DNA of 64,000 bases. Source: a virus. Its lineage: Duplodnaviria > Caudoviricetes. The notes under the pieces are model-generated. The model was not told the origin of the DNA and ran no database searches. It saw only the letters and a list, made by a program, of their open reading frames with translations. Position 1 is the stretch's first letter. The number at the start of each line of letters is the position of its first letter. The position numbers and the translations under genes were made by a program. Shown piece after piece: positions 3,416 to 30,509 of this stretch. The stretch covers positions 1-64,000 of IMG/VR virus record IMGVR_UViG_3300037590_000079; one strand, written 5' to 3'.

Positions 3416-3418
3416 TTT

Positions 3419-3495
3419 CCCGAGCCGCGCTGTATCTTTATAGATTAGTTGTTAAGTTACCTCTTACTTATTATAAAGATACAGCGCGGCTCGGG
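3419..3495. repeat. Inverted repeat element IR1 (24-bp perfect arms, 29-bp AT-rich core)
   Basis: CCCGAGCCGCGCTGTATCTTTATA (3419-3442) / TATAAAGATACAGCGCGGCTCGGG (3472-3495). Confidence 0.95.
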
Positions 3496-3510
3496 GAAAA
3501 AGAGGCGAAA

Positions 3511-4110
3511 ATGAGCGACGAGGAAAGCAACAACTCCGGAAGCGAACGCCTTTCCCAAGAGGTTTTTGACCGGATCCGGTATGAATACGAGACCGGTCAG
3601 AAGAACCTCGGCGACCTTGCGGAAGAGGCGGGTGTGTCGCGACAGGGACTGTCCCGGCGTCTGAAGCGTGCCGGCGCGGTCAAGAACTCGCGCATCCACG
3701 AGCTGAAGAAGCCGGAAAACGCTCCGGAACCGGACAAGAGCTACTCGGCCAATCGCGCAAAGTGGATCGAGGAGACGCGCGTCTCCGGGTTCAATGCACT
3801 GAAGCAGGCCCAGATCATCGCGCGCAAGACCGTCGCCGACGCCGTCAGAAGCAATCAGTCCCTGGCGACCATCGACGACGATCTCAAGGCGATCCAGCGC
3901 TACAACAAGACGCTCGCGGACAACATCCTGGCAACCCTCAACCTGCTCGATGCCGACAATTACATCGACGAGGAGGATCTGCCGCAGCTGCTGATCCAGG
4001 ATCTGACCGACGAGGAGATTCTCGAACATCACAAGGCCACCGGGGCACTGCCGGAAGACGCGACCATCGAGGATCTGAACTCCGAAGAGATCGTGGCGGA
4101 AGAAATCTGA
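3511..4110 (+). CDS. terminase small subunit (putative)
   Basis: N-terminal HTH (LGDLAEEAGVSRQGLSRRLK); directly upstream of and coupled to TerL. Confidence 0.7.
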   Translation: MSDEESNNSGSERLSQEVFDRIRYEYETGQKNLGDLAEEAGVSRQGLSRRLKRAGAVKNSRIHELKKPENAPEPDKSYSANRAKWIEETRVSGFNALKQAQIIARKTVADAVRSNQSLATIDDDLKAIQRYNKTLADNILATLNLLDADNYIDEEDLPQLLIQDLTDEEILEHHKATGALPEDATIEDLNSEEIVAEEI

Positions 4111-5384
4111 TGGCCCTGATGGAAAATAACATCCTGAAGCTGCACCGGCTTCAGAAGAAGGTCATGGGCGACAAGCACCGATTTCGCGTCGTCGTGGCCG
4201 GGCGCAGATGGGGCAAGACCCAGGTCGCCAAGATCTCCCTGATCACCTTTGCCGCGTCGAAGCGCAAGCAGCTGGTCTGGTATGTCGCGCCGACCTATCA
4301 GCAGGCGCGCGATATCCTGTGGGAAGATCTCAAGGCCAGCATTCCGCGCAGCTGGATCCACAAGATCAACGAGACCCGGATGACCATCCGGCTCATCAAC
4401 GGATCCTGGATTGCCCTGAAAGGGGCCGACAAGCCCGACAGCCTGCGCGGCATCGGTCTGAACTTCGTCGTGGTGGACGAGGCCCAGGACATCAAGGAAG
4501 AGACCTGGGAGATGGTCCTTCAGCCGACGCTCTCGACCACCAACGGCCGGGCGCTCTTCATCGGCACGCCGAAGTCCTACAACTGGCTCTATGATCGCTA
4601 CATGCTCGGCCAGCGCGGCACTATCGTTCGCGACGAGCGCCGGCGGAAGGTGCTCAACGAGTGGAAGTCGTGGCAGTTCCCGACCATCACCTCGCCGTTC
4701 ATCCCCAAGCGCGAGATCGAGAGCAAGCGCCGCGACATGGATCCCAAGTCGTTCCGGCAGGAATACGAGGCGTCGTTCGAGACGATGTCCGGGCGCGTCT
4801 ACTACTCCTTCGACCGCAAGACGCATGTCGGGAACTACCCGTTCAATCCGCGCCTGCCGATCTATATCGGCATGGACTTCAACATCGATCCGATGTCGGC
4901 CATCATCTGCCAGGAGCAGAGCGACGGCATGATCTGGGTCGTGGACGAGTGCGTGCTTTACGGCTCGAACGTGCAGGACACGGCGGACGAGCTTGGCCGG
5001 CGCTACTTCCGGTATATGCGCCAGATCGAGATCTACCCGGATCCGGCGGGCAACAATCGCAACCACGACCGCGGCGAAAGCTCGCTCGACGTGCTGCGCG
5101 AGGCCGGCTTCCGGAAGATCTACTACAAGCCGAAGCATCCGCTGGTGATGGATCGCGTGATGGCCGTCAACCGGATCATGCGGGCTGCCGACGGGTCGGT
5201 TCGTCTCGGTGTCAACGAGCACTGCAAGCACTTCATCGAGAGCGCCGAGCAGACCATCTTCAAGGAAGGCTCGCGCGAGGTGGACAAGAAGCAGGGCACC
5301 GAGCACGCGATGGACGCCTTCGGCTACTACATCGATTACCGGCACCCGATGAGCAAGCACGACATTGTCGGCGTCTCCATTTGA
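4110..5384 (+). CDS. terminase large subunit
   Basis: VVAGRRWGKT Walker A, FVVVDEA Walker B, IGTP, GMDFN nuclease motif, EHAMDA. Confidence 0.95.
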   Translation: MALMENNILKLHRLQKKVMGDKHRFRVVVAGRRWGKTQVAKISLITFAASKRKQLVWYVAPTYQQARDILWEDLKASIPRSWIHKINETRMTIRLINGSWIALKGADKPDSLRGIGLNFVVVDEAQDIKEETWEMVLQPTLSTTNGRALFIGTPKSYNWLYDRYMLGQRGTIVRDERRRKVLNEWKSWQFPTITSPFIPKREIESKRRDMDPKSFRQEYEASFETMSGRVYYSFDRKTHVGNYPFNPRLPIYIGMDFNIDPMSAIICQEQSDGMIWVVDECVLYGSNVQDTADELGRRYFRYMRQIEIYPDPAGNNRNHDRGESSLDVLREAGFRKIYYKPKHPLVMDRVMAVNRIMRAADGSVRLGVNEHCKHFIESAEQTIFKEGSREVDKKQGTEHAMDAFGYYIDYRHPMSKHDIVGVSI

Positions 5385-5386
5385 TC

Positions 5387-5415
5387 TTGCAATTAGGTCA
5401 GTGCTTACTTATGGT
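5387..5415 (+). promoter_or_regulatory. sigma70-like promoter with the 18-bp operator in its spacer
   Basis: TTGCAA-N17-TATGGT; operator TAGGTCAGTGCTTACTTA at 5394-5411. Confidence 0.65.
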
Positions 5416-5435
5416 TTGCGGGAAAGGATCGAAGA

Positions 5436-7031
5436 ATGCCCCAGACCGACGGTTCAGCGCAATACACCGAGAATGCCCTGCGGTCGTTTTACGACCGCCG
5501 GCATCCGATGTATCTCGAACTGATCGAGCACTGGCGGTTTCTCTTCGAGACATACCGGGGCGGCCGGCACTGGTTCGAGAACCACATCCACAAGTATCAC
5601 AAGGAAGGCACCCAGGAATACAAAAACCGTCTCGATCGCGCCTACCGGTTCAACCACACGCGCGAGGTCGTCGATCTGGTCCAGAAATACCTCTTCAAGG
5701 GGCATATCAACCGGAACACGGACGAGGCACCCGAGACGGTGACGGCTTTCTGGAAGGCTGCGATGCGCGGCGGTGCCGGGATCAAGACGCTGATGCGCGA
5801 GGCGTCGGTGAAGGCGTCGATCGGCGGCCGCACCGCGATCGTCGTGGACAACAATTTCCCCAGCAATGTCGATGAAGAGGGAAATCGCATTCCGGTCTCG
5901 ATCTCCGCGATGCAGGGGCATCGCGTCTACGCCTATTGCGTGCCGGTGACGGATATTCTCGACTATGCCTGGGACGAGGATGGCGACGGCGAGCTTCTCT
6001 GGATCAAGCTGCGGGAATGGGTGCGCGACGATACCGATCCGTTCGAGGCGGCCGAGCTTGTCGAGCCGCGCGTGCGTCTGTGGACCCGTGACAGTTGGTA
6101 TCTCTACCAGGAGGTTGACGAGCCCGACAAGACCAATCGGCCTGCGCGCGGAAAGGAGAACCCGAAGGAGATCAGGAGTATCGGTTCGGGCAAGCACGAC
6201 CTGGGCGAGGTGCCCGTTCGGCTGCTCGACAACACCATCTCGGCCGATCCCTACAACGCGCCGAGCCTGATCGAGGATATTGCCTATCTCGACCGCGCGG
6301 TCGCGAACTATCTGTCGAACCTGGACGCGATCATCCAGGATCAGACCTTCAGCCAGCTTGCGATCCCCGCGCAGGGGCTCAATCGCGGCGACGACGCTTA
6401 CAAGAAGGTGCTCGAAATGGGCACCAAGCGTATCTTCACCTATGACGCCGGAATGGGCAGCGACGCGGCTCCGCGTTTCATCTCGCCCGATCCGAAGCAG
6501 GCCGGCGTCATCCTGAGCGTGATCAACAAGATCATCAACGAGATCTACCACACGGTCGGTCTCGCCGGTGAACGCACGAAGGAGGATAACTCCGTCGGGA
6601 TCGACAACAGCTCGGGCGTGGCGAAGGCTTACGATTTCGAGCGGGTCAACTCGCTTCTGACGAGCAAGGCCGCCGCGTGCGAGGAAATCGAGAACTGGAT
6701 GGTTCGGATCGTGCAGAAATGGCACGGGGCCGAAACCGTCATCGACGATCTGGTCTCCTATCCCGAAGGTTTCGATGTTCTCAACCTTCAGGACGAACTG
6801 ACGACCGCCGAGGCACTGGGCAAGATCAACGCGCCCGAAGAGGTTCGGCGGCATCACATGCGTCAGCTCGTGGAAAAGCTGTTCCCGCAGCTGAAAAAGG
6901 ACATCAAGGAAGGCATCATCAAGGCGATCTCCGAATGGCAGAAGCCCGAGGAAAGTGATGCACAGCCGTCCGGCGATCCTGTCTCCGCGCCCAACAGGCA
7001 GGGACAGGTGACGCGGGACACCCCCGACTAA
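5436..7031 (+). CDS. portal protein
   Basis: 531 aa after TerL; HDLGEVPV, SLIEDIAYLDRAVAN, SSGVAKAYDF portal-like motifs. Confidence 0.85.
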   Translation: MPQTDGSAQYTENALRSFYDRRHPMYLELIEHWRFLFETYRGGRHWFENHIHKYHKEGTQEYKNRLDRAYRFNHTREVVDLVQKYLFKGHINRNTDEAPETVTAFWKAAMRGGAGIKTLMREASVKASIGGRTAIVVDNNFPSNVDEEGNRIPVSISAMQGHRVYAYCVPVTDILDYAWDEDGDGELLWIKLREWVRDDTDPFEAAELVEPRVRLWTRDSWYLYQEVDEPDKTNRPARGKENPKEIRSIGSGKHDLGEVPVRLLDNTISADPYNAPSLIEDIAYLDRAVANYLSNLDAIIQDQTFSQLAIPAQGLNRGDDAYKKVLEMGTKRIFTYDAGMGSDAAPRFISPDPKQAGVILSVINKIINEIYHTVGLAGERTKEDNSVGIDNSSGVAKAYDFERVNSLLTSKAAACEEIENWMVRIVQKWHGAETVIDDLVSYPEGFDVLNLQDELTTAEALGKINAPEEVRRHHMRQLVEKLFPQLKKDIKEGIIKAISEWQKPEESDAQPSGDPVSAPNRQGQVTRDTPD

Positions 7032-7114
7032 GGACGCCGTCGAGAAACCGCACGGCATCCTGCAACAGAAACCGGCCGAGAGACTGGCCACCTGACATGC
7101 CCGAGAGACTGGGC
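7031..7114 (+). promoter_or_regulatory. three hairpins with GAGA(G/A)AC loops in the scaffold leader
   Basis: GGCC-GAGAGACT-GGCC (7074-7089), GCCC-GAGAGACT-GGGC (7099-7114), and a longer stem at 7031-7061 whose loop contains GAGAAACC. Confidence 0.6.
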
Positions 7115-7128
7115 GGAAGGAGAAAGAC

Positions 7129-8100
7129 ATGGATAAGTCCATCATGGGGCTGCTGCCCTTTTTCGCGTTTGCAGCCATGAATGTGCTGCGCGACAAGGAT
7201 GACGAAACCGGGAGCAAGTCTGGCGACGACACCGATCAGAACGGCGACAAGGGCGACGACAAGAGCGGCGACAAGGGCGACGATGAGACCGATGCCGAGC
7301 GTCAGGCACGCGAGGCGAAGGAGGCCGATGAGGCCGAGCGCCAGGCGCGCGAGGATGCCGACAAGGCCAAGAAGAAGGCCGACAAGACCGGCGACTCCGC
7401 CGACAAGAAGGAGGCCGAGGAGAAGGCCGACCTGCTCAAGGAGGTCATGGACAAGAAGCAGAAGCTCCGTGACACCGAGAAGGAGAAGGCCGATCTCGAA
7501 GCGAAGCTCAAGGCATATGGCGACATCGATCCCGACAAGGCCAAGGAGCTTGTCCGCAAGGAGCAGGAGGCCCAGCAGGCCGCGCTCGAAGCGAAGGGCG
7601 AGTTCGAACGCGTCAAGGAGATGATGCGGGAGCAGAGTGAGAAGGAGAGCGAAGAGCTCCGCGCGGAACTGGAGCGCGAGCGCGAGGCCAACAAGTCGAA
7701 GGATGCGATCATCGACGATCTCACCGTCGGCAACGCCTTCTCGTCCTCGAAGTTCATCCAGGAAAACCTGGTGATCTCGTCGAACAAGGCTCGCCAGCTC
7801 TACGCCGGTCATTTCGAGATGGTCGATGGCCAGCTGGTCGGTTTCGACAAGCCCGCCGGCGCCAAGGATCGCACCCAGCTCGTGAACGGATCGGGCGATC
7901 CGGTTTCCTTCGACGAGGCGATGAAGCGTATCATCGAAGCGGATCCCGACAAGAACGATCTCACCCGGTCGAACGCGCGGCCGGGCGGCGGATCGAAGAC
8001 GAACTCCGGCGGGGAAAAGAAACCCGGTGCCGACAAGAAGAAGAGTGACGGTCTCTACGGCCGGACGCGCATCGCAAATGCGCTGAAGGAAGACACCTGA
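7129..8100 (+). CDS. head scaffolding protein
   Basis: Acidic low-complexity N-terminus and coiled coil; lies between portal and capsid genes. Confidence 0.8.
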   Translation: MDKSIMGLLPFFAFAAMNVLRDKDDETGSKSGDDTDQNGDKGDDKSGDKGDDETDAERQAREAKEADEAERQAREDADKAKKKADKTGDSADKKEAEEKADLLKEVMDKKQKLRDTEKEKADLEAKLKAYGDIDPDKAKELVRKEQEAQQAALEAKGEFERVKEMMREQSEKESEELRAELEREREANKSKDAIIDDLTVGNAFSSSKFIQENLVISSNKARQLYAGHFEMVDGQLVGFDKPAGAKDRTQLVNGSGDPVSFDEAMKRIIEADPDKNDLTRSNARPGGGSKTNSGGEKKPGADKKKSDGLYGRTRIANALKEDT

Positions 8101-8120
8101 TTTTCCCCTCTCTTTGGCCG

Positions 8121-8155
8121 AATGTGCCGCAGCGATCACACCGCTGCGGCATATT
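8121..8155 (+). terminator. stem-loop after the scaffold gene
   Basis: AATGTGCCGCAGCG...CGCTGCGGCATATT. Confidence 0.55.
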
Positions 8156-8255
8156 TGTCACAAAAATCCGTTTTTTCTCTTGAATACATCGCCCTCCTCG
8201 GGTTATGTAAGCGGTGACTTACATCCTGGCGATGCTCTGAACGAGGAGAAGAAAC

Positions 8256-9158
8256 ATGCCCCTTCTGGCGGAAGAAGCCGAAAAGCTGTCGATCGAGGAT
8301 CGCCAGCGCGGCGTCATCGAAGAAATCATCGATCGGGACGAGCTGTTCGCACTTGTTCCGTTCACTGGCACCACCGACGAGACCTATTCCTACGTCCGTG
8401 AAAAGACCGTCGCCGAAGGCGAATGGTTCTCGGCCTACGAAGACCTGGAGGAGAGCGCATCGACGTTCGACCCGGTCAACGTGAAGCTGAAGCGGATCGC
8501 CGGTCAGGTCGATATCGACAACTTCCAGGACGAGGTTCAGTCGAATCTCAACAACCAGGTCGCCATCCAGCTCGCCGCCAAGGCGAAGGGCATGGGCCGG
8601 CAGTTCCGCCGCACTCTCGTGAACGGCGACACCGCCGTGAACGCGAAGGAGTTCGACGGTCTGCGCAAGCTCACCCCTGCGGCCCAGACCATGAATGCCG
8701 GCGCAAATGGCGGCTCGGTGTCCTTCTCGATGCTCGACGAGATGCGCGACATGGTCGATCTCGGCGCCGACGTGCTGATGATGCGCCAGGGCACCTGGCG
8801 CGCGATCCGCGCCCTGAACCGGACGATGGGTGGCAACACCGCCGATCACATCATGCTGGAGAACTTCGGCTTCCCGGTTCGCGCCTATGACGGCACCCCG
8901 GTGATCATCAACGACTTCATCGAGGCCGACGAGACGCAGGGCACCAACGACGCCACGACCTCGATCTACGCTCTGCGCCTGAACGAGGCCGACGGCTTCC
9001 ACGGTCTGTTCGGCGGGCCTTCGGCGGGCTTCCGCATGGAGAAGGTCGGCCTGCTCCAGGGCAAGGACGCGACCCGCTGGCGGATGAAGTGGTATGTTGC
9101 CACGGCGCTCAAGGCCACCCACGCGGTTTCGCGCCTCAAGGGCGTGACCAACATCTGA
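8256..9158 (+). CDS. major capsid protein
   Basis: 300 aa, GVIEEIIDRDELFALVPF...EFDGLRKL; strong GAGGAG RBS, strongly biased codons, position after scaffold. Confidence 0.9.
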   Translation: MPLLAEEAEKLSIEDRQRGVIEEIIDRDELFALVPFTGTTDETYSYVREKTVAEGEWFSAYEDLEESASTFDPVNVKLKRIAGQVDIDNFQDEVQSNLNNQVAIQLAAKAKGMGRQFRRTLVNGDTAVNAKEFDGLRKLTPAAQTMNAGANGGSVSFSMLDEMRDMVDLGADVLMMRQGTWRAIRALNRTMGGNTADHIMLENFGFPVRAYDGTPVIINDFIEADETQGTNDATTSIYALRLNEADGFHGLFGGPSAGFRMEKVGLLQGKDATRWRMKWYVATALKATHAVSRLKGVTNI

Positions 9159-9190
9159 TCTTGTTTTTCGGTCAGTGCTGACTTAACATT

Positions 9191-9215
9191 GGGCGGGAGC
9201 AATCCCGCCCTTTGT
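9191..9215 (+). terminator. Rho-independent terminator after the capsid gene
   Basis: GGGCGGGA-GCAA-TCCCGCCC-TTTGT. Confidence 0.7.
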
Positions 9216-9234
9216 CATTCTGAGAGAGCCCATC

Positions 9235-9876
9235 ATGTCCGATATCTACGAAAAAAAGCGCCTTCGCATCGTCGAGAAGGGGTTCGAGACCTATACCGGC
9301 GAACTGAGCGTCTACATGTTCGAGAACGGCGTCTCCGTCGAGACCATTCCGCGCGTCGAACGCGACCGGATCGCCGCGACGATGGCCTGTGTCGAGGTGG
9401 ACGAAGGTGGCCGCGAGAAGGGCGCCGGCGTCGCCGAGCGTCTCGTGAGCGAATCCAAGGCCCGTGCTCCCGAGCCCGAGCAGACCGAACGCCAGAGCGA
9501 GGATGAGAAGTCGAAGGAGGAGCGGGAGGTGGCCGCCAAGGCGACGATTTCCACCGTCACCTTCTACTCCGAGGATGAGCTCGATGCCGTGATCGCCGAG
9601 GGCGGCATCCATGCGCTGCGCGAGGTGGCGAAGCAGTGGAACCTCAAGGGCCGGTCCATCCCGCAGCTGCGCGATGACGTCCTGAACGCCCAGAAGACCT
9701 TCCTGGAGAACAACCAGGAGATCCGCGAGCAGCGCATGAAGATGATCGAGGCGGGCCAGACCAATCCCGAGCCCGAACCCGGCGCCGACACGAACACCGG
9801 CACCGATCAGGATGCGGTCCAGTCCGCGGCCGAGACCGGCGACATGTCGGCTGCGCTCAACAAGGATCGTGACTGA
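9235..9876 (+). CDS. head-module protein with C-terminal AAETGDMSAALNK tag
   Basis: ORF after the capsid gene; own promoter TTGTTT-N17-TAACAT (9161-9189) with operator at 9168-9185. Confidence 0.75.
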   Translation: MSDIYEKKRLRIVEKGFETYTGELSVYMFENGVSVETIPRVERDRIAATMACVEVDEGGREKGAGVAERLVSESKARAPEPEQTERQSEDEKSKEEREVAAKATISTVTFYSEDELDAVIAEGGIHALREVAKQWNLKGRSIPQLRDDVLNAQKTFLENNQEIREQRMKMIEAGQTNPEPEPGADTNTGTDQDAVQSAAETGDMSAALNKDRD

Positions 9877-9878
9877 GA

Positions 9879-10670
9879 ATGGATATCTATCCGGAGAGCT
9901 ATGACGTCACGCTGTCGGTTCCCGTCCAGGATCCGGCGGGTCGGAACTTCAACCCCGACAGCGTGACGGCGACCCTGTATGATCAGGACGACGAGATGGT
10001 GGCCGATCTCGGCTCCGTCCCGTTCGTCTCCGGACAGACCAGTCTCGATATCACGGTTCCTCGTGCGAATCTGACCGTTCCCCTGCACCAGCGCCGCGCA
10101 GCCTTCACCCTGCGCGTGACCTTCATGTCGCAGAGCGGATCCTTTCCCCGGACGATCGTTTTCGCCGTCGAGCGCGATGCGGCGCTTCGGGTGATGACGA
10201 ACTCGTTCCTGACATTCGCGCGCGCCGAGATGCTCGCCGTCGATCACACCAATGCCGATGGCTGGCACGCCGCGGAGGAATCCGCACGCAAGCACGCCCT
10301 CGTCGAGGCATTCGTGCGCCTGCAACGCATTCCCATGCAGTTCACCCCGCGCGATGACGAAGGCAATCTCCTGCCCGACAAGCGCCAGGTGATCCCGCGT
10401 GATCTCTGGCCGAAGGAAACCAGGGCGGATTTCGACGCCTATCCCGAGCACTTCCGCAACGCCCTGCGCATGGCCCAGTTCGTCGAGGCCGACAACATTC
10501 TCAGAGGCGAGATCGTCGCGCGCAAGCGTGCCGAAGGGATCGTCGAGGAGGAGGTTCACGAAAGCCGTATGGAAATCTCGCCGACGGTCGTCTCCTACGA
10601 CATCTGCGAGGCGGCAATGGTCGTGCTTGCCGGCTATGTCGATTTCGATATCCGTGTCGGGAGGGCGTGA
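9879..10670 (+). CDS. head-tail connector/adaptor protein
   Basis: NSFLTFARAE...W...RKHALVEA pattern typical of adaptors; synteny. Confidence 0.6.
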   Translation: MDIYPESYDVTLSVPVQDPAGRNFNPDSVTATLYDQDDEMVADLGSVPFVSGQTSLDITVPRANLTVPLHQRRAAFTLRVTFMSQSGSFPRTIVFAVERDAALRVMTNSFLTFARAEMLAVDHTNADGWHAAEESARKHALVEAFVRLQRIPMQFTPRDDEGNLLPDKRQVIPRDLWPKETRADFDAYPEHFRNALRMAQFVEADNILRGEIVARKRAEGIVEEEVHESRMEISPTVVSYDICEAAMVVLAGYVDFDIRVGRA

Positions 10671-11008
10671 TGTTCCGGCCCAATCTCACGGGATCCATTC
10701 GGACAAGGATCGGCTATGATGTTCATGGCCGTCCGAAACTGTCGCAGCCGCGGCCCGTGCGTTTTTCGCAGGCGGAATTCGGCCGCGATATCATGCGCAC
10801 GCCTGATGGGGCGGCGTCGGCAGGTGCGGCAGGGCAGGGGACGGCGGCCGACAGCGTGATCCTGATAGATCGGAAGGCGAAGATCGACATCGAGGATGTC
10901 TTCACCTTCGACGGCCAGGACTACCGCGTGATGGCCGTCTATCCGCGCCGCGACATCACCGGATTCGTGGATCACTACGAGGCCGCCCTGGAGCTGTTCG
11001 AGGGATGA
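10670..11008 (+). CDS. head-closure protein (putative)
   Basis: GYDVHGRP N-terminus, beta-rich, about 112 aa; synteny. Confidence 0.55.
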   Translation: MFRPNLTGSIRTRIGYDVHGRPKLSQPRPVRFSQAEFGRDIMRTPDGAASAGAAGQGTAADSVILIDRKAKIDIEDVFTFDGQDYRVMAVYPRRDITGFVDHYEAALELFEG

Positions 11009-11903: not shown

Positions 11904-11986
11904 GCTTAGACCTTGCCTGGGACCATATCGTCTGATAGGTTCTAAGTAACTGCTGACTTACCCTCATTCTCGCACGGAGTATCGAA

Positions 11987-12808
11987 ATGGGCACCGAAAA
12001 TGTAAAACTGGGCGTTTGCAACGTCTTTTTCGACGGCCAGGATCTTGGCCTCACCAAGGGCGGCGTCGAGGTCGAGGCCGCAACCGAAACCCACGAAGTC
12101 ACCGTTGACCAGTATGGCAACACGGTGATCAACGAGATCATCATCGGTCGGTCGGTTTCCGCGAATGTGCCGATGGTCGAGACCACGCTGGACAACATGG
12201 TCCGGATCATGCCGGGCGGCGTGCTCGTGACCGATGGCGATTTCGCCTCGGGCACCGTGACGCTTTCGGCCGCACCGGCCGACGGCGACACCGTCGGTGT
12301 CTTTGGCACGACCTTCACCTTTCGCACCACGCCGAGCGCGCAGCACGATGTGCTGATCGGTGCCGACGAGGTCGCATCGGCCGAAAACCTGGCCGACACC
12401 GTGAATGGCGCGGTCATCCCGATCTCCGCCGAGGTCACGGCCGATGGCGAAGTCACGATTACCGCCAACAGCCGCGGCTCGGAATGGAACCTGACCGTGT
12501 CGAGTAGCGGTGTCGCGATCACCACGGCCGACATGACCGGTGGGGTCGATGTGACCAAGGCGCGCGTTGACGTGCCGACCGGCGTGAACATCAGCCTCTC
12601 GTCGATCGCCAAGAAACTGGTCCTGCGTCCCATCGGCACCTCGGGCGAGGATGACTTCATCATCTACAAGGCAGCCGCACCCGGCGCGCTGAACTTCACC
12701 TACAACGTCGATCAGGAGCGCATCTACACGGCCAACTTCAAGGGCTATGTCGATCCGCAGTCCGGCGGCGCCCTCTTCGCGGTCGGCGACGAAGACGCAA
12801 CCGCGTGA
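11987..12808 (+). CDS. major tail tube protein with an inserted beta-domain
   Basis: NVKLGVCNVFFDGQDLGLTKGGVEV N-terminus; promoter TTGCCT-N17-TAGGTT and operator at 11943-11960; followed by a terminator and chaperones. Confidence 0.85.
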   Translation: MGTENVKLGVCNVFFDGQDLGLTKGGVEVEAATETHEVTVDQYGNTVINEIIIGRSVSANVPMVETTLDNMVRIMPGGVLVTDGDFASGTVTLSAAPADGDTVGVFGTTFTFRTTPSAQHDVLIGADEVASAENLADTVNGAVIPISAEVTADGEVTITANSRGSEWNLTVSSSGVAITTADMTGGVDVTKARVDVPTGVNISLSSIAKKLVLRPIGTSGEDDFIIYKAAAPGALNFTYNVDQERIYTANFKGYVDPQSGGALFAVGDEDATA

Positions 12809-12813
12809 TCGTG

Positions 12814-12846
12814 ACCGGGCCTGAAAAGGCCCGGTTCTTCCTTCTC
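12814..12846 (+). terminator. terminator after the tail tube gene
   Basis: ACCGGGCC-TGAAAA-GGCCCGGT followed by a pyrimidine tract. Confidence 0.65.
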
Positions 12847-12869
12847 TCAAGACATCAGGATAACACAGT

Positions 12870-13570: not shown

Positions 13571-13583
13571 CAGGAAGGTCGAG

Positions 13584-18556: not shown

Positions 18557-18609
18557 GCGCCTCTTGCTTATCAGTCAGTTGTTACTTATGCTTGGTCCGA
18601 GAGGTGAGC

Positions 18610-20790: not shown

Positions 20791-20794
20791 TCTC

Positions 20795-23700
20795 ATGACC
20801 GAACACATCAAGAAGCCCGCTCGGGATATCGAAGGTCGCGGCGGCGGGGGCGGCAAGAAGGGCGGCAGCGCCGGGTCCGACGCCGAGAACACGCTGCGCT
20901 CCAATTCCAAGGCGCGCATGGTCGAGCTGCTCTCGGAAGGCCCGATCGAGGGGCTCGTGAATGGCGCGCAGTCGATCTATTTCGACCGCACCCCGCTTGA
21001 GAACAGCGACGGCAGCACGAATTTCGAAGGCGTGATCTGGGAAGAGCGCAAGGGCCTTCCCGACGACGAGCATCTTCAGGGGCACGGCGCTGTCGAGCAG
21101 ATCAATCCCGTCGGTGTCGAAGTGACCCAGGCCGTCGGCCGCGTGACGCGCGAGATCACCGATCCCGAGGTCGATGCCGTCCGTATGGTCATCCAGCTCA
21201 ATTCGCTCTTCAAGGTCGATTCGAACGGCAATCTTCAGCGCTTCAGCGTCGGATATGCGATTGACGTCCAGTCCTACGGCGGCGCCTGGCAGACCCTTCA
21301 CACTCAGAACATCCAGTCCCAGAAGACCACGTCGCCCTACCAGCTCGCCCACAAGATCAAGCTGCCCGTGGGTGGTGCGCCCTGGAAGATTTCGGTTCGG
21401 CGCACGACACCCGATGACGCGAACGACCGCGAGGCGAGCGACTTTTCCTGGCAGAGCTATGTCGCCCTGAAAGAGGGCAAGTTCACCTATCCCCACAGCG
21501 CCCTGGTGGGTATCGAGGTGGATGCCGAAAGCCTCGGCCAGAACGCACCGCCCCGGACCTATCACCTGAAAGGGCGCATCATCGACGTGCCCAGCAATTA
21601 CGATCCGGAGACCCGGACCTACTCGGGCATCTGGGACGGCACGTTCAAGTCCGCCTATTCGAACAACCCCGCCTGGATCTTCAATGACGCGGTCACGCAC
21701 GACCGCTACGGCCTGGGTGAGTTCGTCGATCAGTCGATGATGAACAAGTGGACCCTCTACCAGATCGGCCAGTATTGCGACGAGGCGGTGCCGTCTGGCT
21801 TCACAGACGGCGCCGGAGACATGGTCTATGAGCCGCGCTTCACCTTCAACGCGCAAATCCGCGACCGCAGAGAGGCGTATTACGCGCTTCAGACGATCTC
21901 GCGTGCCTTCCGTGGCATGGGGTTCTGGTCGCTCGGGCAGGTCTTCGCATCGGCCGACATGCCGGCTGATCCGGTCAAGCTGGTGACGCCTGCCAATGTC
22001 ATCGAGGGGCGGTTCAACTACTCGAATACGGCCATGAAGGCGCGGCACACCGTCGCCATCGTGCGCTTCAACGATCCCGTCAATCACTTCACCCCGACGA
22101 CCGAACTGGTGATCCACGAGGAAGGGCTGAAGCGCTTCGGCTGGCGCGAAAAGCGCCTCGACTTCGAGGGATGCTCGTCGCGCGGACTGGCACGCCGCTA
22201 CGGAAAATGGGTGCTCGATACCGAGCAGAACGAGATCGAGACGGTCGAATACAAGGCCGGCTTCGATCATATCGACGTCAAGCCGGGCGACATCGTCACG
22301 ATCCTCGATCCCCGCAAGACCTCGATCCGCCGCGGTGGCCGGATCAAGGGGCACGACACCTCGACCAACAAGGTGACGCTCGACGCGCCCGTGACGCTCG
22401 ACGCGCAGGTGACTTATACGCTGAAGCTGGTCAACGATGCAGGCGAGATCGTCGATTTCCCCGTCTCCGAGACAGGCGAGGTGAGCGAGATCGATATCGG
22501 CGCGACCGCGCACAGCTTCTCTCCGGCCGCCGTCTTCATCATGACGGGGTCCGATCTCAAGCCCCGTCCGTTTCGCGTCGTGTCGATGGATGAGACCGAG
22601 GAGAATATCTTCCAGATCACGGCGCTTGAGCACGATCCCACGAAATACGCGCGCGTCGAGCAGAATATCAGCTTCGATCCGCCGCCCTATTACGCGCACC
22701 CCGCGATCAAGGCGCCGAAAAATCTCACTGCCGACGAGATCGCCTATATCAGCTCCGAGCGGGTGCGGACCAAAATCCGCCTCTCCTGGGAGAGACCCGA
22801 AGGCATCGCGGTTCGCGAATACGTGATCCGTGTCAACTCGGAGACGGAGTTCAACGCCAACGTCGCCGCGACACCCGCGACGAATTTCGACCTGGAAGGC
22901 TACGAGCCGGGCGATTACGTGTTCGGCGTTCAGGCGATCGACAGACGCGGCCATATCTCCAAGGTTGCGGAAGTCAGCATCACGGTTCTGGGTGCAAGCG
23001 CGCTCAGCAATGGCGAGGTGCAGGATCTCGAACTCGAAGAGAACCCCGGCGGATCGAACTTCACCGGCAAGGATGTGAAGATCGCGTGGAAGAACATCTT
23101 TCCGCAGACATCCGAGGATGCACAGCAGACGCAAGAGGGCTCGCCCACCTATTCGCACAACCTCGTCGAGGTCTATGACGACGACACCAACACGCTGCTC
23201 AGATCGGCACGCGTGAGCGGCGAGCGCTACGTCTACTCCTTCGAGGAAAACGAAGCGGACTCCATCGATAAGCTCTTCGCGGGCGCGCGGCGCAGCCTGC
23301 GCTTCAGCGTGTCGGTTCACACCATGTCGGGCGGTGCTTCCAGCCCGGTCACACTGAGCGTGTCGAACGCGCCACCCACGGCTGTCTCTCCGGTCGTGAC
23401 CGTCAATACCAATCAGATCGGCATTTCCGCACCGCAGGAGGTGGATAACGATTTCGCCGGTATGAAGGTGTGGATCGAGGAAGTCAGCGGCTTCGACGAG
23501 AGCCTGAAGACGCCGAAATACAACGGGCCGTCGAATTACACCTCGTGGTCGGGGGCCTATGGCAGAACCTACCACGTCAAGGCCGGCTATCGCGATCTCT
23601 TCGATGACACCTATACGATCACGCCTGAAGTGACCGTCATCACCGAGGCGAGCGCGATCGGGGCCGAGCCTGCCGTGCCGGCCAATCTCGTCGTGACCTC

Positions 23701-26317
23701 TGAACTCGCCGGTAACGGCCTGGCCCGGCTGATCGCCGACTGGGACGACAATTCCGAAAGCTGGGTGACGGGTTACGAGCTGACCTTCACGCAAGGGTCG
23801 AATGTCACGACGGCCGTGGTGAACGTGAGTCATTACGAGACCCTTGTCGAGCGCGGGGCCGATATCGATGTCACCGTGAAGGCGATCGGCCCCTTCGGCG
23901 GCAAGTCCGATGAAACCAGCGCCGTCTCGATCACCACGGCCACGGACACGGGCGCCCCGGCGACACCGGGCACGATCACCGTGACCAGCGGCTTCGAGAC
24001 CCTCTGGCTGCAATGGCCGAAGAACACCGAAGAGGATCTCTCGCATTACGAGCTGAGCGTGAACTATAGCCCCAATACGGGTCAGAATTACATCGATCCG
24101 TCTCTGATCCAGCCTGATTTCATTGCGCAGGGTGAAAGTTTCGCGATCACCGGGATCTATGACGGCTCTTCGCGCTACATCATGCTGCGTGCCGTCGATA
24201 CCTCGGGGAACGTGTCGCCCTGGACCTCGGAGATCCAGGCGACACCGACCAGCCTGCCCGATACCGTCGGGCAGGAACAGATCATCGCCTACACCGCGAA
24301 CATCAAGGACGCGGTTATCACCGATGCCAAGATCGCGAACCTGAGCGCGGCGAAGCTGGCGGCCGGCACGGCGATCGCGAACAGCATCACGGTGGACGGC
24401 ACGGCCCTGGGCACGGTCAACAGCCGCGCGGCCAATCCCGCGGCGCGGATCAATACCGGCACCACGCAGATCGATCCGGGCAAGATCGTTATCTCGGGCA
24501 GCACCTCGCTGGCCGACTGGCGCGGCAGCGACACGACCACGATCGACGGCGGCAAGATCGAGACGAACTCCATCCGGGCCGACCAGATCATCGTCGGTGA
24601 CTTCACGAACTTCGCGGACGGATCGGATTTCGAGACGCCGGCCGCGAACCCCTGGATCTTCAACGACATCAACACGGGGATTGGATCCACGGAGTCGCGG
24701 TCGGGCAGCTGGTCGATGCAGATCGGCCCGACCGCGACACTCGCGAAGCGCGCGGAACTCGCCAAGAAGATCCGGCTCATCGAGGGCGCGGAGATTGTTC
24801 TGCGCGCCTGGATCCATCCCGACGCGAGTTTCGACGGAACGAGCGCGTCCGAGTTCCGTTTTTACGACCAGATGAGCAATCTTCTGGCGTCCTTTCCCTT
24901 CGACTCTATGGCTACCGGGGAATGGACGGGTTTCGTGCGCAACGTCTCAGTGCCGACGGATACGCAGGAAATCTCCGTCGAGATCTGGACCGACAACGCC
25001 GCGGGAAACGTCTACATCGACGACATCGAGATCTTCCGCAAGGTCTCCGGCGACATGATCGTCAACGGATCCGTCACCGTGAACTCCCTCGCGGCGGGCG
25101 TGCTTTCCGCCGACAATATCGTCGCTGGCACGATGAGTGTCGCGCGGCTCGCGGTTGATGACATCCTGGAAATCTCCGCGGCAAATTCCGGGTTTTCCAT
25201 GTCGAAAACCAGCGCCTATGACGTGACCGTTGACGGCGTCTACATGGGTCGCACGCTGGAAGAGGATGGATCGGTCGGCTTCGGGCTGTCGATGTCGAAG
25301 ACGACCGATTCCGGCGCCGTCCAGAGCTTGCAGGCCACCGAGGGCACCGGGCTGCGCATCCAGAATGCGAGCTTCGTCCGCGAGCTTTCCACGCCGTCGA
25401 GCCCCACGATGTATACCTCGACGCAGACGATCTCCCTGGCTGCCGCGACAAAGTCCATTTCGCTCGACATGATCGGTGCAGGCGGCGGCGGGGCAGGGGG
25501 CTCGACCAGCACGCCGGGTGGTGACGGTCAGGACACGACGGTTGTTCTCAAGGACGGAACGACCGTAATCAAGACATGGGTCGTGGAAGGCGGCGCAGGG
25601 GCGACCGGAACTGCCATCTACGGCGGTGGTCAGGCGGGCGAAAGCTCGCCCTGGGGTGTCGGCGGGCCGGGCGGCGATTACGCGAAATATTACGTCTCCG
25701 ATGGCGGAGGAGAGTCGGGAAGTCCGACCTATGTGAGCGAGCCCGCCACACCCGGCGGAAACGGCTCGGGCTACGGTTCGGGCGGCGGCGGTGGCGGCCA
25801 CGCCACGCAGAACAATCCCTATGGCGGCCGGGGCGGCAAGTCCGGCTCGTTCGTCAGCGTGATGGATTATGACGTCTCGACCCTCACGGATCCCAAGCTG
25901 GAAATCACCATCGGCACCGGCGGCCAGGGCGTCATCGGTGGGAACGCGAACGGTGGCAACGGTGCGCCCGGCAGGGTCGATGTGACCGAGATCGAGACCG
26001 TTCCGGTCGTCTCGGATGTGATCCCGATCGAGCCCACCTTCATCGGCCAGTTCAACAGCGATTTCATGGGCGCGAGCACCAACCAGAAGATTCCCGCGGA
26101 TCACGGTGCCGGCTTCTATGTGATCTGGACGAACGATCTCTACACCGGAAGCATGGAGCTTGGCTTTCTCGACGTCGATGATATTTCCGGCTCGGTCAAT
26201 ATCGGCGCGTTCGACAGGACGATCGCCTTCGTCTCGAACAAGACGCCGGTCGTGACGAATTCCCAGCGCGGATACGATCGCACCCTTCATTACAAGTTCT
26301 ACAAGATGGGAGCGTGA
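20795..26317 (+). CDS. tail tip protein J (host specificity) with an extended C-terminus
   Basis: LLSEGPIEGL, YSNNPAWI, EPRFTFN, FN3-like segments; C-terminal carbohydrate-binding-like and glycine-rich regions. Confidence 0.92.
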   Translation: MTEHIKKPARDIEGRGGGGGKKGGSAGSDAENTLRSNSKARMVELLSEGPIEGLVNGAQSIYFDRTPLENSDGSTNFEGVIWEERKGLPDDEHLQGHGAVEQINPVGVEVTQAVGRVTREITDPEVDAVRMVIQLNSLFKVDSNGNLQRFSVGYAIDVQSYGGAWQTLHTQNIQSQKTTSPYQLAHKIKLPVGGAPWKISVRRTTPDDANDREASDFSWQSYVALKEGKFTYPHSALVGIEVDAESLGQNAPPRTYHLKGRIIDVPSNYDPETRTYSGIWDGTFKSAYSNNPAWIFNDAVTHDRYGLGEFVDQSMMNKWTLYQIGQYCDEAVPSGFTDGAGDMVYEPRFTFNAQIRDRREAYYALQTISRAFRGMGFWSLGQVFASADMPADPVKLVTPANVIEGRFNYSNTAMKARHTVAIVRFNDPVNHFTPTTELVIHEEGLKRFGWREKRLDFEGCSSRGLARRYGKWVLDTEQNEIETVEYKAGFDHIDVKPGDIVTILDPRKTSIRRGGRIKGHDTSTNKVTLDAPVTLDAQVTYTLKLVNDAGEIVDFPVSETGEVSEIDIGATAHSFSPAAVFIMTGSDLKPRPFRVVSMDETEENIFQITALEHDPTKYARVEQNISFDPPPYYAHPAIKAPKNLTADEIAYISSERVRTKIRLSWERPEGIAVREYVIRVNSETEFNANVAATPATNFDLEGYEPGDYVFGVQAIDRRGHISKVAEVSITVLGASALSNGEVQDLELEENPGGSNFTGKDVKIAWKNIFPQTSEDAQQTQEGSPTYSHNLVEVYDDDTNTLLRSARVSGERYVYSFEENEADSIDKLFAGARRSLRFSVSVHTMSGGASSPVTLSVSNAPPTAVSPVVTVNTNQIGISAPQEVDNDFAGMKVWIEEVSGFDESLKTPKYNGPSNYTSWSGAYGRTYHVKAGYRDLFDDTYTITPEVTVITEASAIGAEPAVPANLVVTSELAGNGLARLIADWDDNSESWVTGYELTFTQGSNVTTAVVNVSHYETLVERGADIDVTVKAIGPFGGKSDETSAVSITTATDTGAPATPGTITVTSGFETLWLQWPKNTEEDLSHYELSVNYSPNTGQNYIDPSLIQPDFIAQGESFAITGIYDGSSRYIMLRAVDTSGNVSPWTSEIQATPTSLPDTVGQEQIIAYTANIKDAVITDAKIANLSAAKLAAGTAIANSITVDGTALGTVNSRAANPAARINTGTTQIDPGKIVISGSTSLADWRGSDTTTIDGGKIETNSIRADQIIVGDFTNFADGSDFETPAANPWIFNDINTGIGSTESRSGSWSMQIGPTATLAKRAELAKKIRLIEGAEIVLRAWIHPDASFDGTSASEFRFYDQMSNLLASFPFDSMATGEWTGFVRNVSVPTDTQEISVEIWTDNAAGNVYIDDIEIFRKVSGDMIVNGSVTVNSLAAGVLSADNIVAGTMSVARLAVDDILEISAANSGFSMSKTSAYDVTVDGVYMGRTLEEDGSVGFGLSMSKTTDSGAVQSLQATEGTGLRIQNASFVRELSTPSSPTMYTSTQTISLAAATKSISLDMIGAGGGGAGGSTSTPGGDGQDTTVVLKDGTTVIKTWVVEGGAGATGTAIYGGGQAGESSPWGVGGPGGDYAKYYVSDGGGESGSPTYVSEPATPGGNGSGYGSGGGGGGHATQNNPYGGRGGKSGSFVSVMDYDVSTLTDPKLEITIGTGGQGVIGGNANGGNGAPGRVDVTEIETVPVVSDVIPIEPTFIGQFNSDFMGASTNQKIPADHGAGFYVIWTNDLYTGSMELGFLDVDDISGSVNIGAFDRTIAFVSNKTPVVTNSQRGYDRTLHYKFYKMGA

Positions 26318-26318
26318 C

Positions 26319-26867
26319 ATGCTGGTCTATCACGACACCGACGGGAATATCACCCTGACCCTGAAAGGTCCGAAACACCTCGCTCCGCAGGGTGACTTCA
26401 TCGAGGTCGATGACGCGACGGTCATCGATCCGATCTCCGCATACAAGATCGAGAATGGAGCCGTGGTCCTCAAGACCATCGAGCCGCGCAGGAAAAGCGC
26501 GATCCTGGCCGTGAACAAGCGCATCGAAAGGGAGCGCACCGTCTATACCACCGACATATCCGGCCAGGAAATGATCTACCGGGAAAAGGAGAACGAGGCG
26601 CGGCTTTACGTCACCCTCGATCCCGAGCCCGCGACGCTTGAAGACTTCCCCTTCATCGCGCAGGAAGTGGGCAAGACCGGAGACACGGCATACGAGGTCG
26701 CGCAGGTCTATCTGAACCTCGCCGCGCAGTGGAAACAGATCGGATCCGCGCTCGAAGGTCTGCGTATCTATGCCATCAATCAGATCAGATCCGCCACGAC
26801 CGAACAGGAGATCGACCAGGCTCTCGACAGCTTCGAAGGTGAAATCGACGCACTAGGACCGTCATGA
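26319..26867 (+). CDS. tail fibre-associated/assembly protein
   Basis: GQEMIYREKENEAR...FPFIAQE motif; follows the J gene. Confidence 0.6.
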   Translation: MLVYHDTDGNITLTLKGPKHLAPQGDFIEVDDATVIDPISAYKIENGAVVLKTIEPRRKSAILAVNKRIERERTVYTTDISGQEMIYREKENEARLYVTLDPEPATLEDFPFIAQEVGKTGDTAYEVAQVYLNLAAQWKQIGSALEGLRIYAINQIRSATTEQEIDQALDSFEGEIDALGPS

Positions 26868-26944
26868 TTGCAAAATGCGGTCCCATGAGTTAGGTAAGTG
26901 GTGACTTATGCCCAGAGATAGAAAAGGCGAGCGAAGGAAACGCG

Positions 26945-27289
26945 ATGAATCAATACGAGCGTGACGAGATTGGTCAACTGCGATCCTACCTCAACAAGAT
27001 GGTATTCGGGGCGACGGGTGCGGCACTCACCGTCGGTCTCGCCCTCGGCGGTTTCAGCATCAAGCAGCAGATGCAGATCACCACTGCAAAGGCGCTTGCC
27101 GAAAGCGCCGTGAAAACCTCCGACGAGAACAGAGAGGACATCAAGACGCTCACCTCGAAATTCTCCGACATGAACGGCGTGCTCGAAGGGGTTCGCTCCG
27201 AGCTTGGCGCGCAGCGCCGGGCCGTCGAGGCGATGAACGAAAGCGTCGCCGAACTGACGCGGTATCTCAGGGGAGGCAACATCAAGTGA
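26945..27289 (+). CDS. membrane protein with coiled coil (lysis cassette; holin/antiholin-like)
   Basis: One hydrophobic segment then a coiled coil; operator at 26891-26908 upstream. Confidence 0.5.
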   Translation: MNQYERDEIGQLRSYLNKMVFGATGAALTVGLALGGFSIKQQMQITTAKALAESAVKTSDENREDIKTLTSKFSDMNGVLEGVRSELGAQRRAVEAMNESVAELTRYLRGGNIK

Positions 27290-27507
27290 AGCTGCTGCCC
27301 GACTGGCGCGAGATCATCCGCGACGCATGGTCGATCCGCCTCATCATCATTGCCGGCATTCTCAGCGGCCTGGAGGTCGCGATTGCCCTGACCGGCCCCG
27401 CGCTTTTCGGAATCAGGCCCGGCACGTTCGCGGCGCTTTCCGGGCTCGTCACGATGGCAGCCTTCGTCGCGCGGCTCATTGCACAGAAGGAAAACGACGA
27501 TGGGTGA
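27286..27507 (+). CDS. holin (putative)
   Basis: 73 aa with two TM segments, immediately before the endolysin. Confidence 0.7.
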   Translation: MKLLPDWREIIRDAWSIRLIIIAGILSGLEVAIALTGPALFGIRPGTFAALSGLVTMAAFVARLIAQKENDDG

Positions 27508-28069
27508 CGGTCACGATCCCAGGAAGAGAAAGAAGACGCAAGGCCCCGTCAAGCGCGCAGGGGTTGCGGGAATGGCCGCGACCATCGCGTTCGTCGGTGG
27601 CTGGGAGGGGCTGCGCCTGCAAGCCTACAAGGACTCGGTCGGCGTGCCGACGGTCTGCTACGGCGAGACGCGCGGCGTGGAAATGGGCGACAGCTACACC
27701 AAGGCCCAGTGCGACGCCATGCTGGTCGCGGCGCTCGCCGAGTTCGAGGCAGGAGTCTCGAACTGCATCGATCCCTGGCGCGACCTGCCGGTGAACACCC
27801 AGATCGCCCTGGTCTCCTGGGCCTACAATGTCGGCATCGGCGCGGCCTGCGGCTCGACCGCCGTCAAGCGATTCAACCGGGGTGACTACGTTGCCGCCTG
27901 CGACGCGATCACCTGGTTCCGGAAGGGCACGATCGGCGGGGTCAAGGTCGTGATCCCCGGCCTCGTGAACCGGCGCTCCGCGGAATACAACCTGTGCGTC
28001 GAGGATCTGGATCAGCCAAGAGTCGCTGAGACGCTCACACAGTCGCGCTACGGGTCGCAGAGCACATGA
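27500..28069 (+). CDS. GH24 lysozyme endolysin, possibly SAR-type
   Basis: E-X8-D-X5-T triad (EGLRLQAYKDSVGVPT), CYGET, GLVNRR; Gly/Ala-rich N-terminal segment. Confidence 0.92.
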   Translation: MGDGHDPRKRKKTQGPVKRAGVAGMAATIAFVGGWEGLRLQAYKDSVGVPTVCYGETRGVEMGDSYTKAQCDAMLVAALAEFEAGVSNCIDPWRDLPVNTQIALVSWAYNVGIGAACGSTAVKRFNRGDYVAACDAITWFRKGTIGGVKVVIPGLVNRRSAEYNLCVEDLDQPRVAETLTQSRYGSQST

Positions 28070-28488
28070 CAGCGCTGAAGATGCCTGGCGCGCTCCTGTG
28101 CGCTTCTCTGTCGCTCTCAGCGTGCAGCCCTATCGATGCGCTCGGGGCTTTCACGGGCAGCGGGGTCAATACTGCTGCGGCCGTCGATCTTCAGGCGGGC
28201 AAGAACAACGCCGATACCAGCGTCGGTGACTCGACCGTGGTCGATCAGCGGGTGACGCGGCCGAAGGCGCGCGACATCGAGCAGTCCACCGGTGACACCA
28301 AGCTGCGGACCGAGAGAATTCACACCGTTCGCATCGAGGAGAAGGACAGCTCGTGGCTTATCCTCGCGCTGGCGCTCGCCGCAGCTCTGGCCGGTGCGAG
28401 CTTTGTCTATGGCTGGCTGAGCTCCTCTCCGCGCGAGCGTAAACTTCAGCGCCGGATCGGTGAACTTGAGAAAACGGCACGGGAGTGA
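28066..28488 (+). CDS. unimolecular spanin (putative)
   Basis: Lipobox LSAC, beta-rich middle region, C-terminal TM helix. Confidence 0.7.
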   Translation: MTALKMPGALLCASLSLSACSPIDALGAFTGSGVNTAAAVDLQAGKNNADTSVGDSTVVDQRVTRPKARDIEQSTGDTKLRTERIHTVRIEEKDSSWLILALALAAALAGASFVYGWLSSSPRERKLQRRIGELEKTARE

Positions 28489-28496
28489 GCAGGATG

Positions 28497-28574
28497 TTCC
28501 CGAGCCGCGCTGTATCTATATCTAAATAGATAGCTAGCTAAGAAAGTATTATATGATACAGCGCGGCTCGGGAA
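28497..28574. repeat. Inverted repeat element IR2 (20-bp perfect arms, 38-bp AT-rich core)
   Basis: TTCCCGAGCCGCGCTGTATC (28497-28516) / GATACAGCGCGGCTCGGGAA (28555-28574); arm sequence shared with IR1. Confidence 0.95.
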
Positions 28575-29648: not shown

Positions 29649-29716
29649 TCGCCGCTCTGCTCTGCCATTGAGATATCGCTATATCTTCAAGTGCAGCAGC
29701 AGACAGCGAGGCCATT

Positions 29717-30442: not shown

Positions 30443-30509
30443 TTCCCAGATACGACGCGCTATAAATGCGACACAGTTTTAAGTCGGTGCTGACTTATAG
30501 GAGACCGGA

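Follow-up and report, generated by a model that had tools for sequence, protein, structure and literature searches.

Why should a G+C-rich phage genome carry, 25 kb apart, two AT-rich segments that are framed by the same inverted sequence? The question arises in the first 64,000 nucleotides (hereafter the window, 61% G+C) of the 109,661-bp IMG/VR virus record IMGVR_UViG_3300037590_000079, in which one inverted repeat, IR1, lies just before the gene for the small terminase subunit (terS) and another, IR2, just after the spanin gene; the corresponding elements are called E1 and E2 here. A first-pass annotation, made from the window alone, regarded the two as a twin bracket around a 25-kb virion and lysis module. 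The full record and its relatives have instead three elements per genome (four in some), and the third, E3, is a single arm; each appears to stand before a long rightward gene block. We tentatively interpret the elements as control cassettes at the heads of operons, in which a promoter/operator core would be flanked by sites for a lineage-specific factor, and we hold this interpretation with slightly less than even confidence.

The two elements of the window are built as follows.

3416..3442, + strand: E1 left arm, with a GC-rich 18-mer at 3419-3436 beyond which the pairing runs on through TTT and CTTTATA
3443..3471, + strand: E1 AT-rich core, with a degenerate operator AAGTTA..TTACTT and a TATAAA hexamer touching the right arm
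3472..3498, + strand: E1 right arm, with its 18-mer at 3478-3495; the terS Shine-Dalgarno sequence AAGAGG begins 2 nt beyond
28497..28516, + strand: E2 left arm
28517..28554, + strand: E2 AT-rich core, holding the 10-bp palindrome TAGCTAGCTA
28555..28574, + strand: E2 right arm, which doubles as codons 2-7 of open reading frame (ORF) 28553-28825

The 18-mer CCCGAGCCGCGCTGTATC has four exact copies in the window, at 3419-3436 (+), 3478-3495 (-), 28499-28516 (+) and 28555-28572 (-), and a search allowing up to three mismatches gave 4 window matches against 0.17 expected from shuffles. The AT-rich core between the 18-mers measures 41 bp at E1 and 38 bp at E2, in agreement with the paired inverted arms and different cores that were described at first. 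When the A/T extensions are included, the arms pair over 27 nt, with one mismatch, at IR1 and over 20 nt at IR2; these are by far the strongest AT-looped inverted repeats of the whole record, and their cores account for two of only five stretches in the window with at least 70% A+T. The arm has no internal dyad, i.e. it is not itself palindromic, and antisense or partial copies of it elsewhere in the genome are chance 10-mers only. The earlier description of the flanks was also accurate: the genes upstream of E1 and of E2 both terminate in CGGGAGTGA, and small helix-turn-helix (HTH) genes adjoin the elements, ORF 3143-3415 ending 3 nt before IR1 and ORF 28553-28825 having its ATG at the border of core and right arm. 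Two other statements hold in part. The 18-bp operator reported from the IR1 core is present as AAGTTA..TTACTT, but this is only a degenerate form of TAAGTAATTACTTA, and the claim that no other copy of the arm exists is right for the window but not for the full record, which has a fifth arm at 91,004-91,021.

This fifth arm is the right arm of E3 (90,950-91,021 of the record); it matches at 18 of 18 positions and is preceded by an AT-rich core without a left arm. E3 lies in a non-coding stretch of 1.4-1.7 kb (1.4 kb in our genome), and a canonical intrinsic terminator (11-bp stem plus TTTTTCTTT) is found at 90,867-90,900 of the record, 60 nt upstream of its core. Upstream of that terminator runs a purine-rich, strand-lopsided non-coding stretch (~90,300-90,640 of the record). 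A 25-nt direct repeat, CTCGGGAAAAGGGAGYTTTCAGACC, was also seen at 91,013-91,040 and 91,146-91,172 of the record; the first copy overlaps the E3 right arm at its outer end, and the second follows 132 nt downstream.

Our genome belongs to the rhizobial branch of the SSU5-like phage-plasmids, with RHEph10, RHph_X66, B1VFA, pLM21S1 and plasmids of Methylobacterium, Shinella and Pararhizobium as its kin. Relatives were collected by a junction survey over IMG/VR and GTDB genomes that was anchored on TerL alignment; a TerS query alone returned no loci. The survey found an element between the winged helix-turn-helix (wHTH) gene and terS in ~40 loci, including those of Salmonella phage SSU5, Kluyvera plasmids and Yersinia pestis pMT1, and in every relative this junction carries an inverted repeat around an AT-rich core, with arms that differ. 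The first-pass annotation had suggested looking for conserved arms at the junctions of related phage-plasmids, and the inverted repeats are indeed there, with lineage-specific arms. Eleven complete alphaproteobacterial relatives have the whole triad of E1, E2 and E3, as do SSU5 and three or four other enterobacterial records; the set in Y. pestis pMT1 is reduced. In the 11 relatives the E1 arm recurs 13-15 kb upstream of E1, at E3 (22 kb in our genome), and 25-31 kb downstream, past the lysis genes, at E2. In enterobacterial members the elements number three or four and carry the arm RCCTGCTTCCGTATAT, and in SSU5 the second element precedes a phrog_2500/DnaB/primase block, as our E2 does, and the third a block containing RNase H and an antirepressor. 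A fourth full element occurs in Methylobacterium oryzae NZ_CP090351.1 at 34,794-34,856, 22 kb upstream of terS, and the single-arm E3 orthologue of that plasmid is at 42,880. Like the anatomy, this conservation and these positions are direct observations, as are the co-variation of the arms and the exclusions discussed below.

Arm sequences are nearly identical among the three sites of one genome, and at least 12 arm types are found between genomes, those of the rhizobial branch following the loose consensus TTCCCGnTCCnTCGnnnGTC. The change is concerted: each of the three loci reads GACAGT in pLM21S1 but GACGAT in G006, and at E1 and E2 the left arms have changed accordingly. Bases specific to each locus (AGATGG at E3, GAATGG at E1) show the loci to be orthologous. 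E1 is nearly perfectly paired across arm types, with interruptions in the RHEph10 clade and in Shinella, and E2 of Pararhizobium has a private compensated pair, CTCTCTTC/GAAGAGAG, as against CTCCCTTC/GAAGGGAG at its E1 and E3. Judged by these sequence comparisons, complementarity of the arms is under selection. Single-arm elements are also conserved, in at least six genomes, and a right-only E3 is common to X66, B1VFA, pLM21S1 and G006. In the RHEph10 clade it is the left arm that is better kept, and the E2 right arm deviates where it overlaps the start of a gene for a ~215-aa HTH protein; in Pararhizobium this gene is lost and the E2 right arm is perfect. Because single arms are conserved, a hairpin cannot be the sole function of the elements, and the comparisons indicate that the arm is a sequence-specific signal that acts in either orientation and as a single copy. 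The earlier proposal of functional, protein-bound sites is strengthened by these results, which point to selected, sequence-specific sites and not to chance repeats, with protein binding as the most likely mode of action.

The cores have features of their own. A TATAAT-like (-10-like) hexamer touches the right arm in all clades, and most cores, including E1 of the relatives, hold the palindrome TAAGTAATTACTTA or one half of it. There are ~14 sites of this palindrome in G006, and in our genome the operator stands downstream of ~10 copies of a separate promoter-like motif, TCTGCTATAA (the 'CTGCTATAA' promoters). The occurrence of TAAGTAATTACTTA both in the cores and at many other promoters suggests that the cores share a regulator with those promoters. 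Apart from E1, the interval from the wHTH stop codon to the start of terS contains nothing AT-rich or promoter-like, and all genes neighbouring the elements are on the + strand.

In the interpretation that we favor, E3 would head the genes of the terminal repeat, which are probably early, E2 the block for helicase-primase and nucleotide metabolism, and E1 the block from terminase to lysis. The AT-rich core of 25-45 bp would be a regulated promoter, with the -10-like hexamer by the right arm and usually the family-wide TAAGTAATTACTTA-type operator, and the arm would be a GC-rich, non-palindromic site of 17-20 bp, in one or two copies, inverted on either side of the core. A phage-encoded, sequence-specific factor could bind the arm and act on all three units together, and the likeliest role is that of an immunity-type operator through which the lytic transcription units would be silenced in the plasmid state. 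A single arm may suffice for this action, and a second, inverted one may make the control tighter or cooperative, which would account for the presence of both arms at every E1, the element of the late/lysis unit. As a secondary effect, read-through RNA of a two-armed element would fold into a very stable hairpin that could insulate or process the RNA and, at E2, hide the start codon. We infer promoter activity, protein binding and the direction of control.

A single asymmetric site repeated at several lytic units, with a sequence peculiar to the lineage, is the arrangement expected of an immunity-type operator, and this is the arrangement that the triad displays. The C1 operators of phage P1 are asymmetric ~17-bp sites at several promoters, single or in inverted pairs, by which one factor controls several lytic units. 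The arms described here are likewise asymmetric sites of about that length in a plasmid-prophage, single or as inverted pairs, but they number only 3-4 per genome, are GC-rich and form pairs on either side of an AT-rich core of 25-45 bp; a C1-like protein was not found, and the sequences are unrelated.

Several results weigh against the elements being operon-head cassettes. A strict sigma-70 consensus scan found no promoter in E1, E2 or E3, so that the case for a promoter consists of the position of the elements, the -10-like hexamers and the absence of any competing start signal in the interval from the wHTH stop to terS. The arms are spaced by anything from 56 to 82 bp without phasing, which speaks against a rigid bridging dimer. 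Concerted evolution is imperfect, as E3 of X66 keeps a G006-type inner arm. Would-be G-U mismatches number 20 on the + strand RNA and 8 on the - strand among 45 unique arm pairs (p = 0.036, relatedness uncorrected), and some selection on the read-through hairpin is plausible from this asymmetry. Finally, the reader of the arm was not found among the five candidates that were aligned (the wHTH, the TerS HTH, the post-E2 HTH protein, a Cro/CI-type HTH_3 protein encoded at 39034-39396 and the post-E3 protein), all of which keep their recognition regions across genomes with different arms.

The TerS HTH (GVSRQALS.R) is conserved across at least nine arm types, and arm distance is correlated with TerS distance beyond that of TerL (partial Mantel r = 0.42, p = 0.003), a signal spread over the whole protein and weakest in the HTH. 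Such a diffuse signal most likely reflects linkage, not recognition. The whole-proteome identity table against 11 genomes had no outlier protein. The post-E3 protein is variable in its N-terminal third and has only weak ArsR-like structural similarity in the ESM Atlas, with no match in Pfam, PHROG or PDB. Two ParB_N proteins, whose genes belong to the operon running up to E1 (window 194-868; record 109048-109656), evolve fast, at 41-55% identity compared with ~70% for a neighbour. These two proteins and the post-E3 protein are candidates only.

Phage-plasmids of the SSU5 type occur widely among Enterobacterales and soil Alphaproteobacteria; they include Y. pestis pMT1 and elements of Klebsiella and E. 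coli. In the literature searched we found no published description of these elements, which are apparently undescribed, and nothing on the control of lysogeny and lytic timing in phage-plasmids of this type. If the elements act as proposed, a triad heading the three main gene blocks would offer a concrete handle for the search for a master regulator, an explanation for heteroimmunity or incompatibility of co-resident relatives, and a route to stable or inducible derivatives in laboratory strains. The co-variation set, with at least 12 arm types and their matched partners, could serve as a ready-made specificity code.

The alternative that survives best is that the elements work mainly as RNA, which we consider unlikely. 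The hairpin in read-through transcripts would then be an RNase III-type processing site, an insulator or a translation gate, and the right arm would be a shared 5' leader, e.g. a nut/put-like antitermination signal or the target of an RNA-binding factor, with a common RNA reader or gene conversion keeping the arms of a genome identical. The predicted folds are very stable (-51.3 kcal/mol, z = -10, for E1; -43.8 kcal/mol, z = -7.6, for E2), compensatory double changes occur within single elements (E2 of Pararhizobium; E2 of pLM21S1 compared with E2 of G006), and the excess of G-U-type mismatches on the + strand is in the direction that such a role predicts. The start codon of the post-E2 ORF falls at the border of loop and stem in our genome, RHEph10, G008, G009, pLM21S1 and G006, and the terS Shine-Dalgarno sequence begins just past the E1 stem. 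Within the late block, terminator-like hairpins at 9191-9210 (after the major capsid gene) and 12813-12836 (after gene 11987-12808) follow capsid and tail genes and would demand long-range read-through. However, single-arm elements are conserved, and the RHEph10 clade keeps the left arm better although this arm lies upstream of any core promoter, so neither a 5'-leader nor a hairpin-only role fits. A hairpin alone would also need no common sequence at three loci. The elements have no U-tract, and an Rfam search of the whole record returned three tRNAs only, with no match at the elements.

The nut sites of lambdoid phages and the put sites of HK022 resemble the arms in lying just past operon-head promoters and in being near-identical within a phage and different between relatives, but they are small RNA hairpins downstream of the promoter, whereas in our elements the promoter would lie between the two strands of the stem, and conserved single arms occur in both orientations. 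The RNase III sites of phage T7 are long double-stranded stems between transcription units, alike within one genome, as the two-armed elements are; the loops here are AT-rich, promoter-like and 29-45 nt long. RNase III hairpins should have a stem of at least 20 bp, with its two strands present, at every site; E1 and E2 of our genome have such a stem, but the single-arm elements of at least six genomes do not.

A packaging role, with the elements as terminase assembly sites of the lambda cosB kind, is quite unlikely. TerS or the wHTH protein would bind sites flanking a bendable AT segment, E1 being the main site and the others auxiliary or regulatory. In lambda, cosB comprises the R3-I1-R2 sites for the winged helix of gpNu1 and lies upstream of Nu1. 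E1 resembles it in having inverted sites around a bendable AT segment upstream of a small terminase gene, a winged-helix gene nearby and a specificity that depends on lineage, and in every member it stands directly upstream of terS with the wHTH gene on its other side. The correlation of arm distance with TerS distance would also suit such a role. On the other hand, there are three or four copies per genome, whereas a cos or pac site should be unique, the Mantel signal is diffuse, and the TerS DNA-binding domain, which ought to co-vary with a cos or pac site, is conserved across arm types. In favor of such a role, the SSU5 record (NC_018843.1) is linearised inside the E1 core, between ACTTATTA and AATATATACGG, and the Cyrano record (OV696614.1) starts 1 nt from that point, so that both open where the core meets the right arm. 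Cyrano is plasmid pLF82, re-annotated for comparison with SSU5, and it was therefore probably opened to match, so that its start is not an independent observation.

Further evidence against a packaging role comes from a relative with known ends. B1VFA has fixed terminal repeats of 3,605 bp, and V1VFA-S has repeats of 3,939 bp (PMC12509600). We placed the B1VFA repeat (MT770738.1) by looking, over 28 kb, for positions a for which a+3605 is homologous to a'+3939 in the alignment with V1VFA-S. Only 39,639-39,808 satisfies both repeat lengths, which puts the B1VFA repeat, within 39,639-43,413, at ~39.65-43.26 kb, and the right end of this interval coincides with the end of a stretch free of GG/CC (42,408-43,258). 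E3 of B1VFA (40,032-40,091) falls ~0.4 kb inside the inferred left boundary of the repeat, and E1 and E2 are far from either end; the start of the B1VFA record is neither a DNA end nor an element. As judged from these 28 kb, E1 and E2 are probably not virion ends in the rhizobial branch, contrary to the suggestion of pac or end-processing sites in the first-pass annotation, and only E3 falls within the placed repeat.

An extended form of the cassette model adds a second level, and this we regard as speculative and improbable. The element would tell locally started transcripts from read-through transcripts, with the arm serving also as a DNA operator. The promoter would lie inside the loop of a potential 20-27-bp stem, so an RNA started in the core would have a free right arm only, which a lineage-specific factor could read, for example as a nut-like signal that lets RNA polymerase pass the terminators within operons of 25-60 kb. 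A transcript coming from the upstream unit would carry both arms, fold, and mask the signal and, at E2, the start codon, while as double-stranded DNA the arm would act as an operator that keeps the three lytic units silent during plasmid life. If true, this would be a new kind of transcription-unit boundary across a family that includes Y. pestis pMT1 and SSU5, type phage of the SSU5/pHCM2 group.

We give little credence to the elements as lytic replication origins, of which a genome would have several, as T4 does, each made up of an AT-rich unwinding element, a promoter and inverted initiator sites on its flanks. The cores are conspicuously AT-rich against the base composition of the genome, E2 is directly upstream of the helicase-primase block in our genome and in SSU5, E3 is within the long non-coding stretch described above, and lineage-specific asymmetric sites of 18-20 bp resemble iterons. 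Nevertheless, each element has one or two inverted arms in place of the direct-repeat arrays expected of iterons, the cumulative GC skew has no turning point at E1 or E2, no initiator changes together with the arms, and a RepC-type plasmid replication gene is located elsewhere, at 37476-38720. Lytic origins and ParB loading sites had both been offered by the first-pass annotation; they retain some small probability, and we found no positive support for either.

Dispersed centromere or silencing sites for a ParB/KorB-like protein are very improbable. The dispersed centromeres of N15 and the KorB operators of RK2 sit beside promoters, as the elements would, and the two fast-evolving ParB_N proteins come from the operon that reaches up to E1. 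But the arm is not palindromic, whereas parS and KorB operators are palindromic sites of 13-16 bp read by a ParB with an HTH, and the ~220-aa ParB/Srx-type proteins encoded here match 'ParB-like nuclease' families with no recognised HTH. In addition, the partner of the plasmid ParA is another small adaptor gene.

Sites for inversion or excision of the virion module, or a MITE-like (miniature inverted-repeat transposable element) mobile repeat, are scarcely credible: identical inverted 18-mers 25 kb apart speak for such sites, but fifteen marker genes are collinear and co-oriented in 11 of 11 relatives, so that the E1-E2 block proposed to invert or excise keeps the same order and orientation, orthologous sites with lineage-specific arms do not fit recent mobility, no recombinase is among the neighbouring genes examined, and copies elsewhere do not exceed chance. 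An exact-match scan for the arm gave 9 single hits in 596 Gb of genomes, with ~17 expected by chance by our own arithmetic, and a single chance hit in IMG/VR, which on inspection has no AT-rich core; in Kluyvera and Y. pestis, arm hits at up to one mismatch are confined to the phage-plasmid contig. The five arms of the record belong to three elements at positions orthologous in 11 relatives, and the scattered MITE-like copies that the first-pass annotation had named as a refutation are absent. Neisseria Correia elements and other MITEs do share a ~75-bp unit with terminal inverted repeats, a promoter-like interior and an RNA hairpin, but the elements here are not dispersed, are absent from host chromosomes and have lineage-specific arms at orthologous positions across a virus family. 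Ordinary terminators, the other refuting case, were rejected as well: the loops are 29-38 nt, with A-runs after the right arms, T-runs before the left arms and no U-tract, and terminator scans found none at E1 or E2. Promoters for a phage-encoded RNA polymerase were ruled out, as no such polymerase gene was seen among the large proteins (Pol III alpha, RNR, an SMC-like protein, ligase, RtcB, DnaB and DnaG).

The genes next to E1 and E2 are listed here.

3143..3415, + strand: winged-helix-like gene, 90 aa, phrog_900, directly upstream of E1 in every relative including SSU5 and pMT1
3511..4110, + strand: terS-like gene, phrog_867, with an N-terminal HTH; first gene past E1, starting 13 nt after IR1
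4107-5384, + strand: terL, next after terS
28066..28488, + strand: Rz-like spanin gene, last of the late/lysis block, stopping 8 nt before IR2
28553..28825, + strand: HTH-like ORF, 90 aa, first gene past E2
28911..33291, + strand: PhoH, phrog_2500 protein, DnaB-like helicase and DnaG-like primase, the replication block that E2 would head

ORF 28553-28825 is a truncated version of the ~215-aa HTH protein (..RVYND..TYP..DVA..SYQTVRN..), which is encoded directly after E2 in 6 of the 10 relatives checked. The N-terminal layout of this ORF is loosely TerS-like, and BLASTP gave no significant match. The record is cut inside the first of the two ParB_N genes (record 109,048-109,656; window 2-868), so its ends are almost contiguous on the circular map and very little sequence is missing.

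The motif TCTGCTATAA belongs to a promoter-like class of the form (CCGCGATCA)-N-TCTGCTATAA, directly followed by AGTAAGTAAG-type operator halves and, 30-45 nt further, by a start codon. This class has ~10 copies, all on the + strand, with starts at 33327, 53131, 55197 and 59776 of the window and at 64552, 67018, 68561, 82357 and 88884 of the record. A 15-bp perfect inverted repeat at 52211-52250 of the window, CGCCTGTTCTGCTAT..ATAGCAGAACAGGCG, embeds TCTGCTATAA in both orientations.

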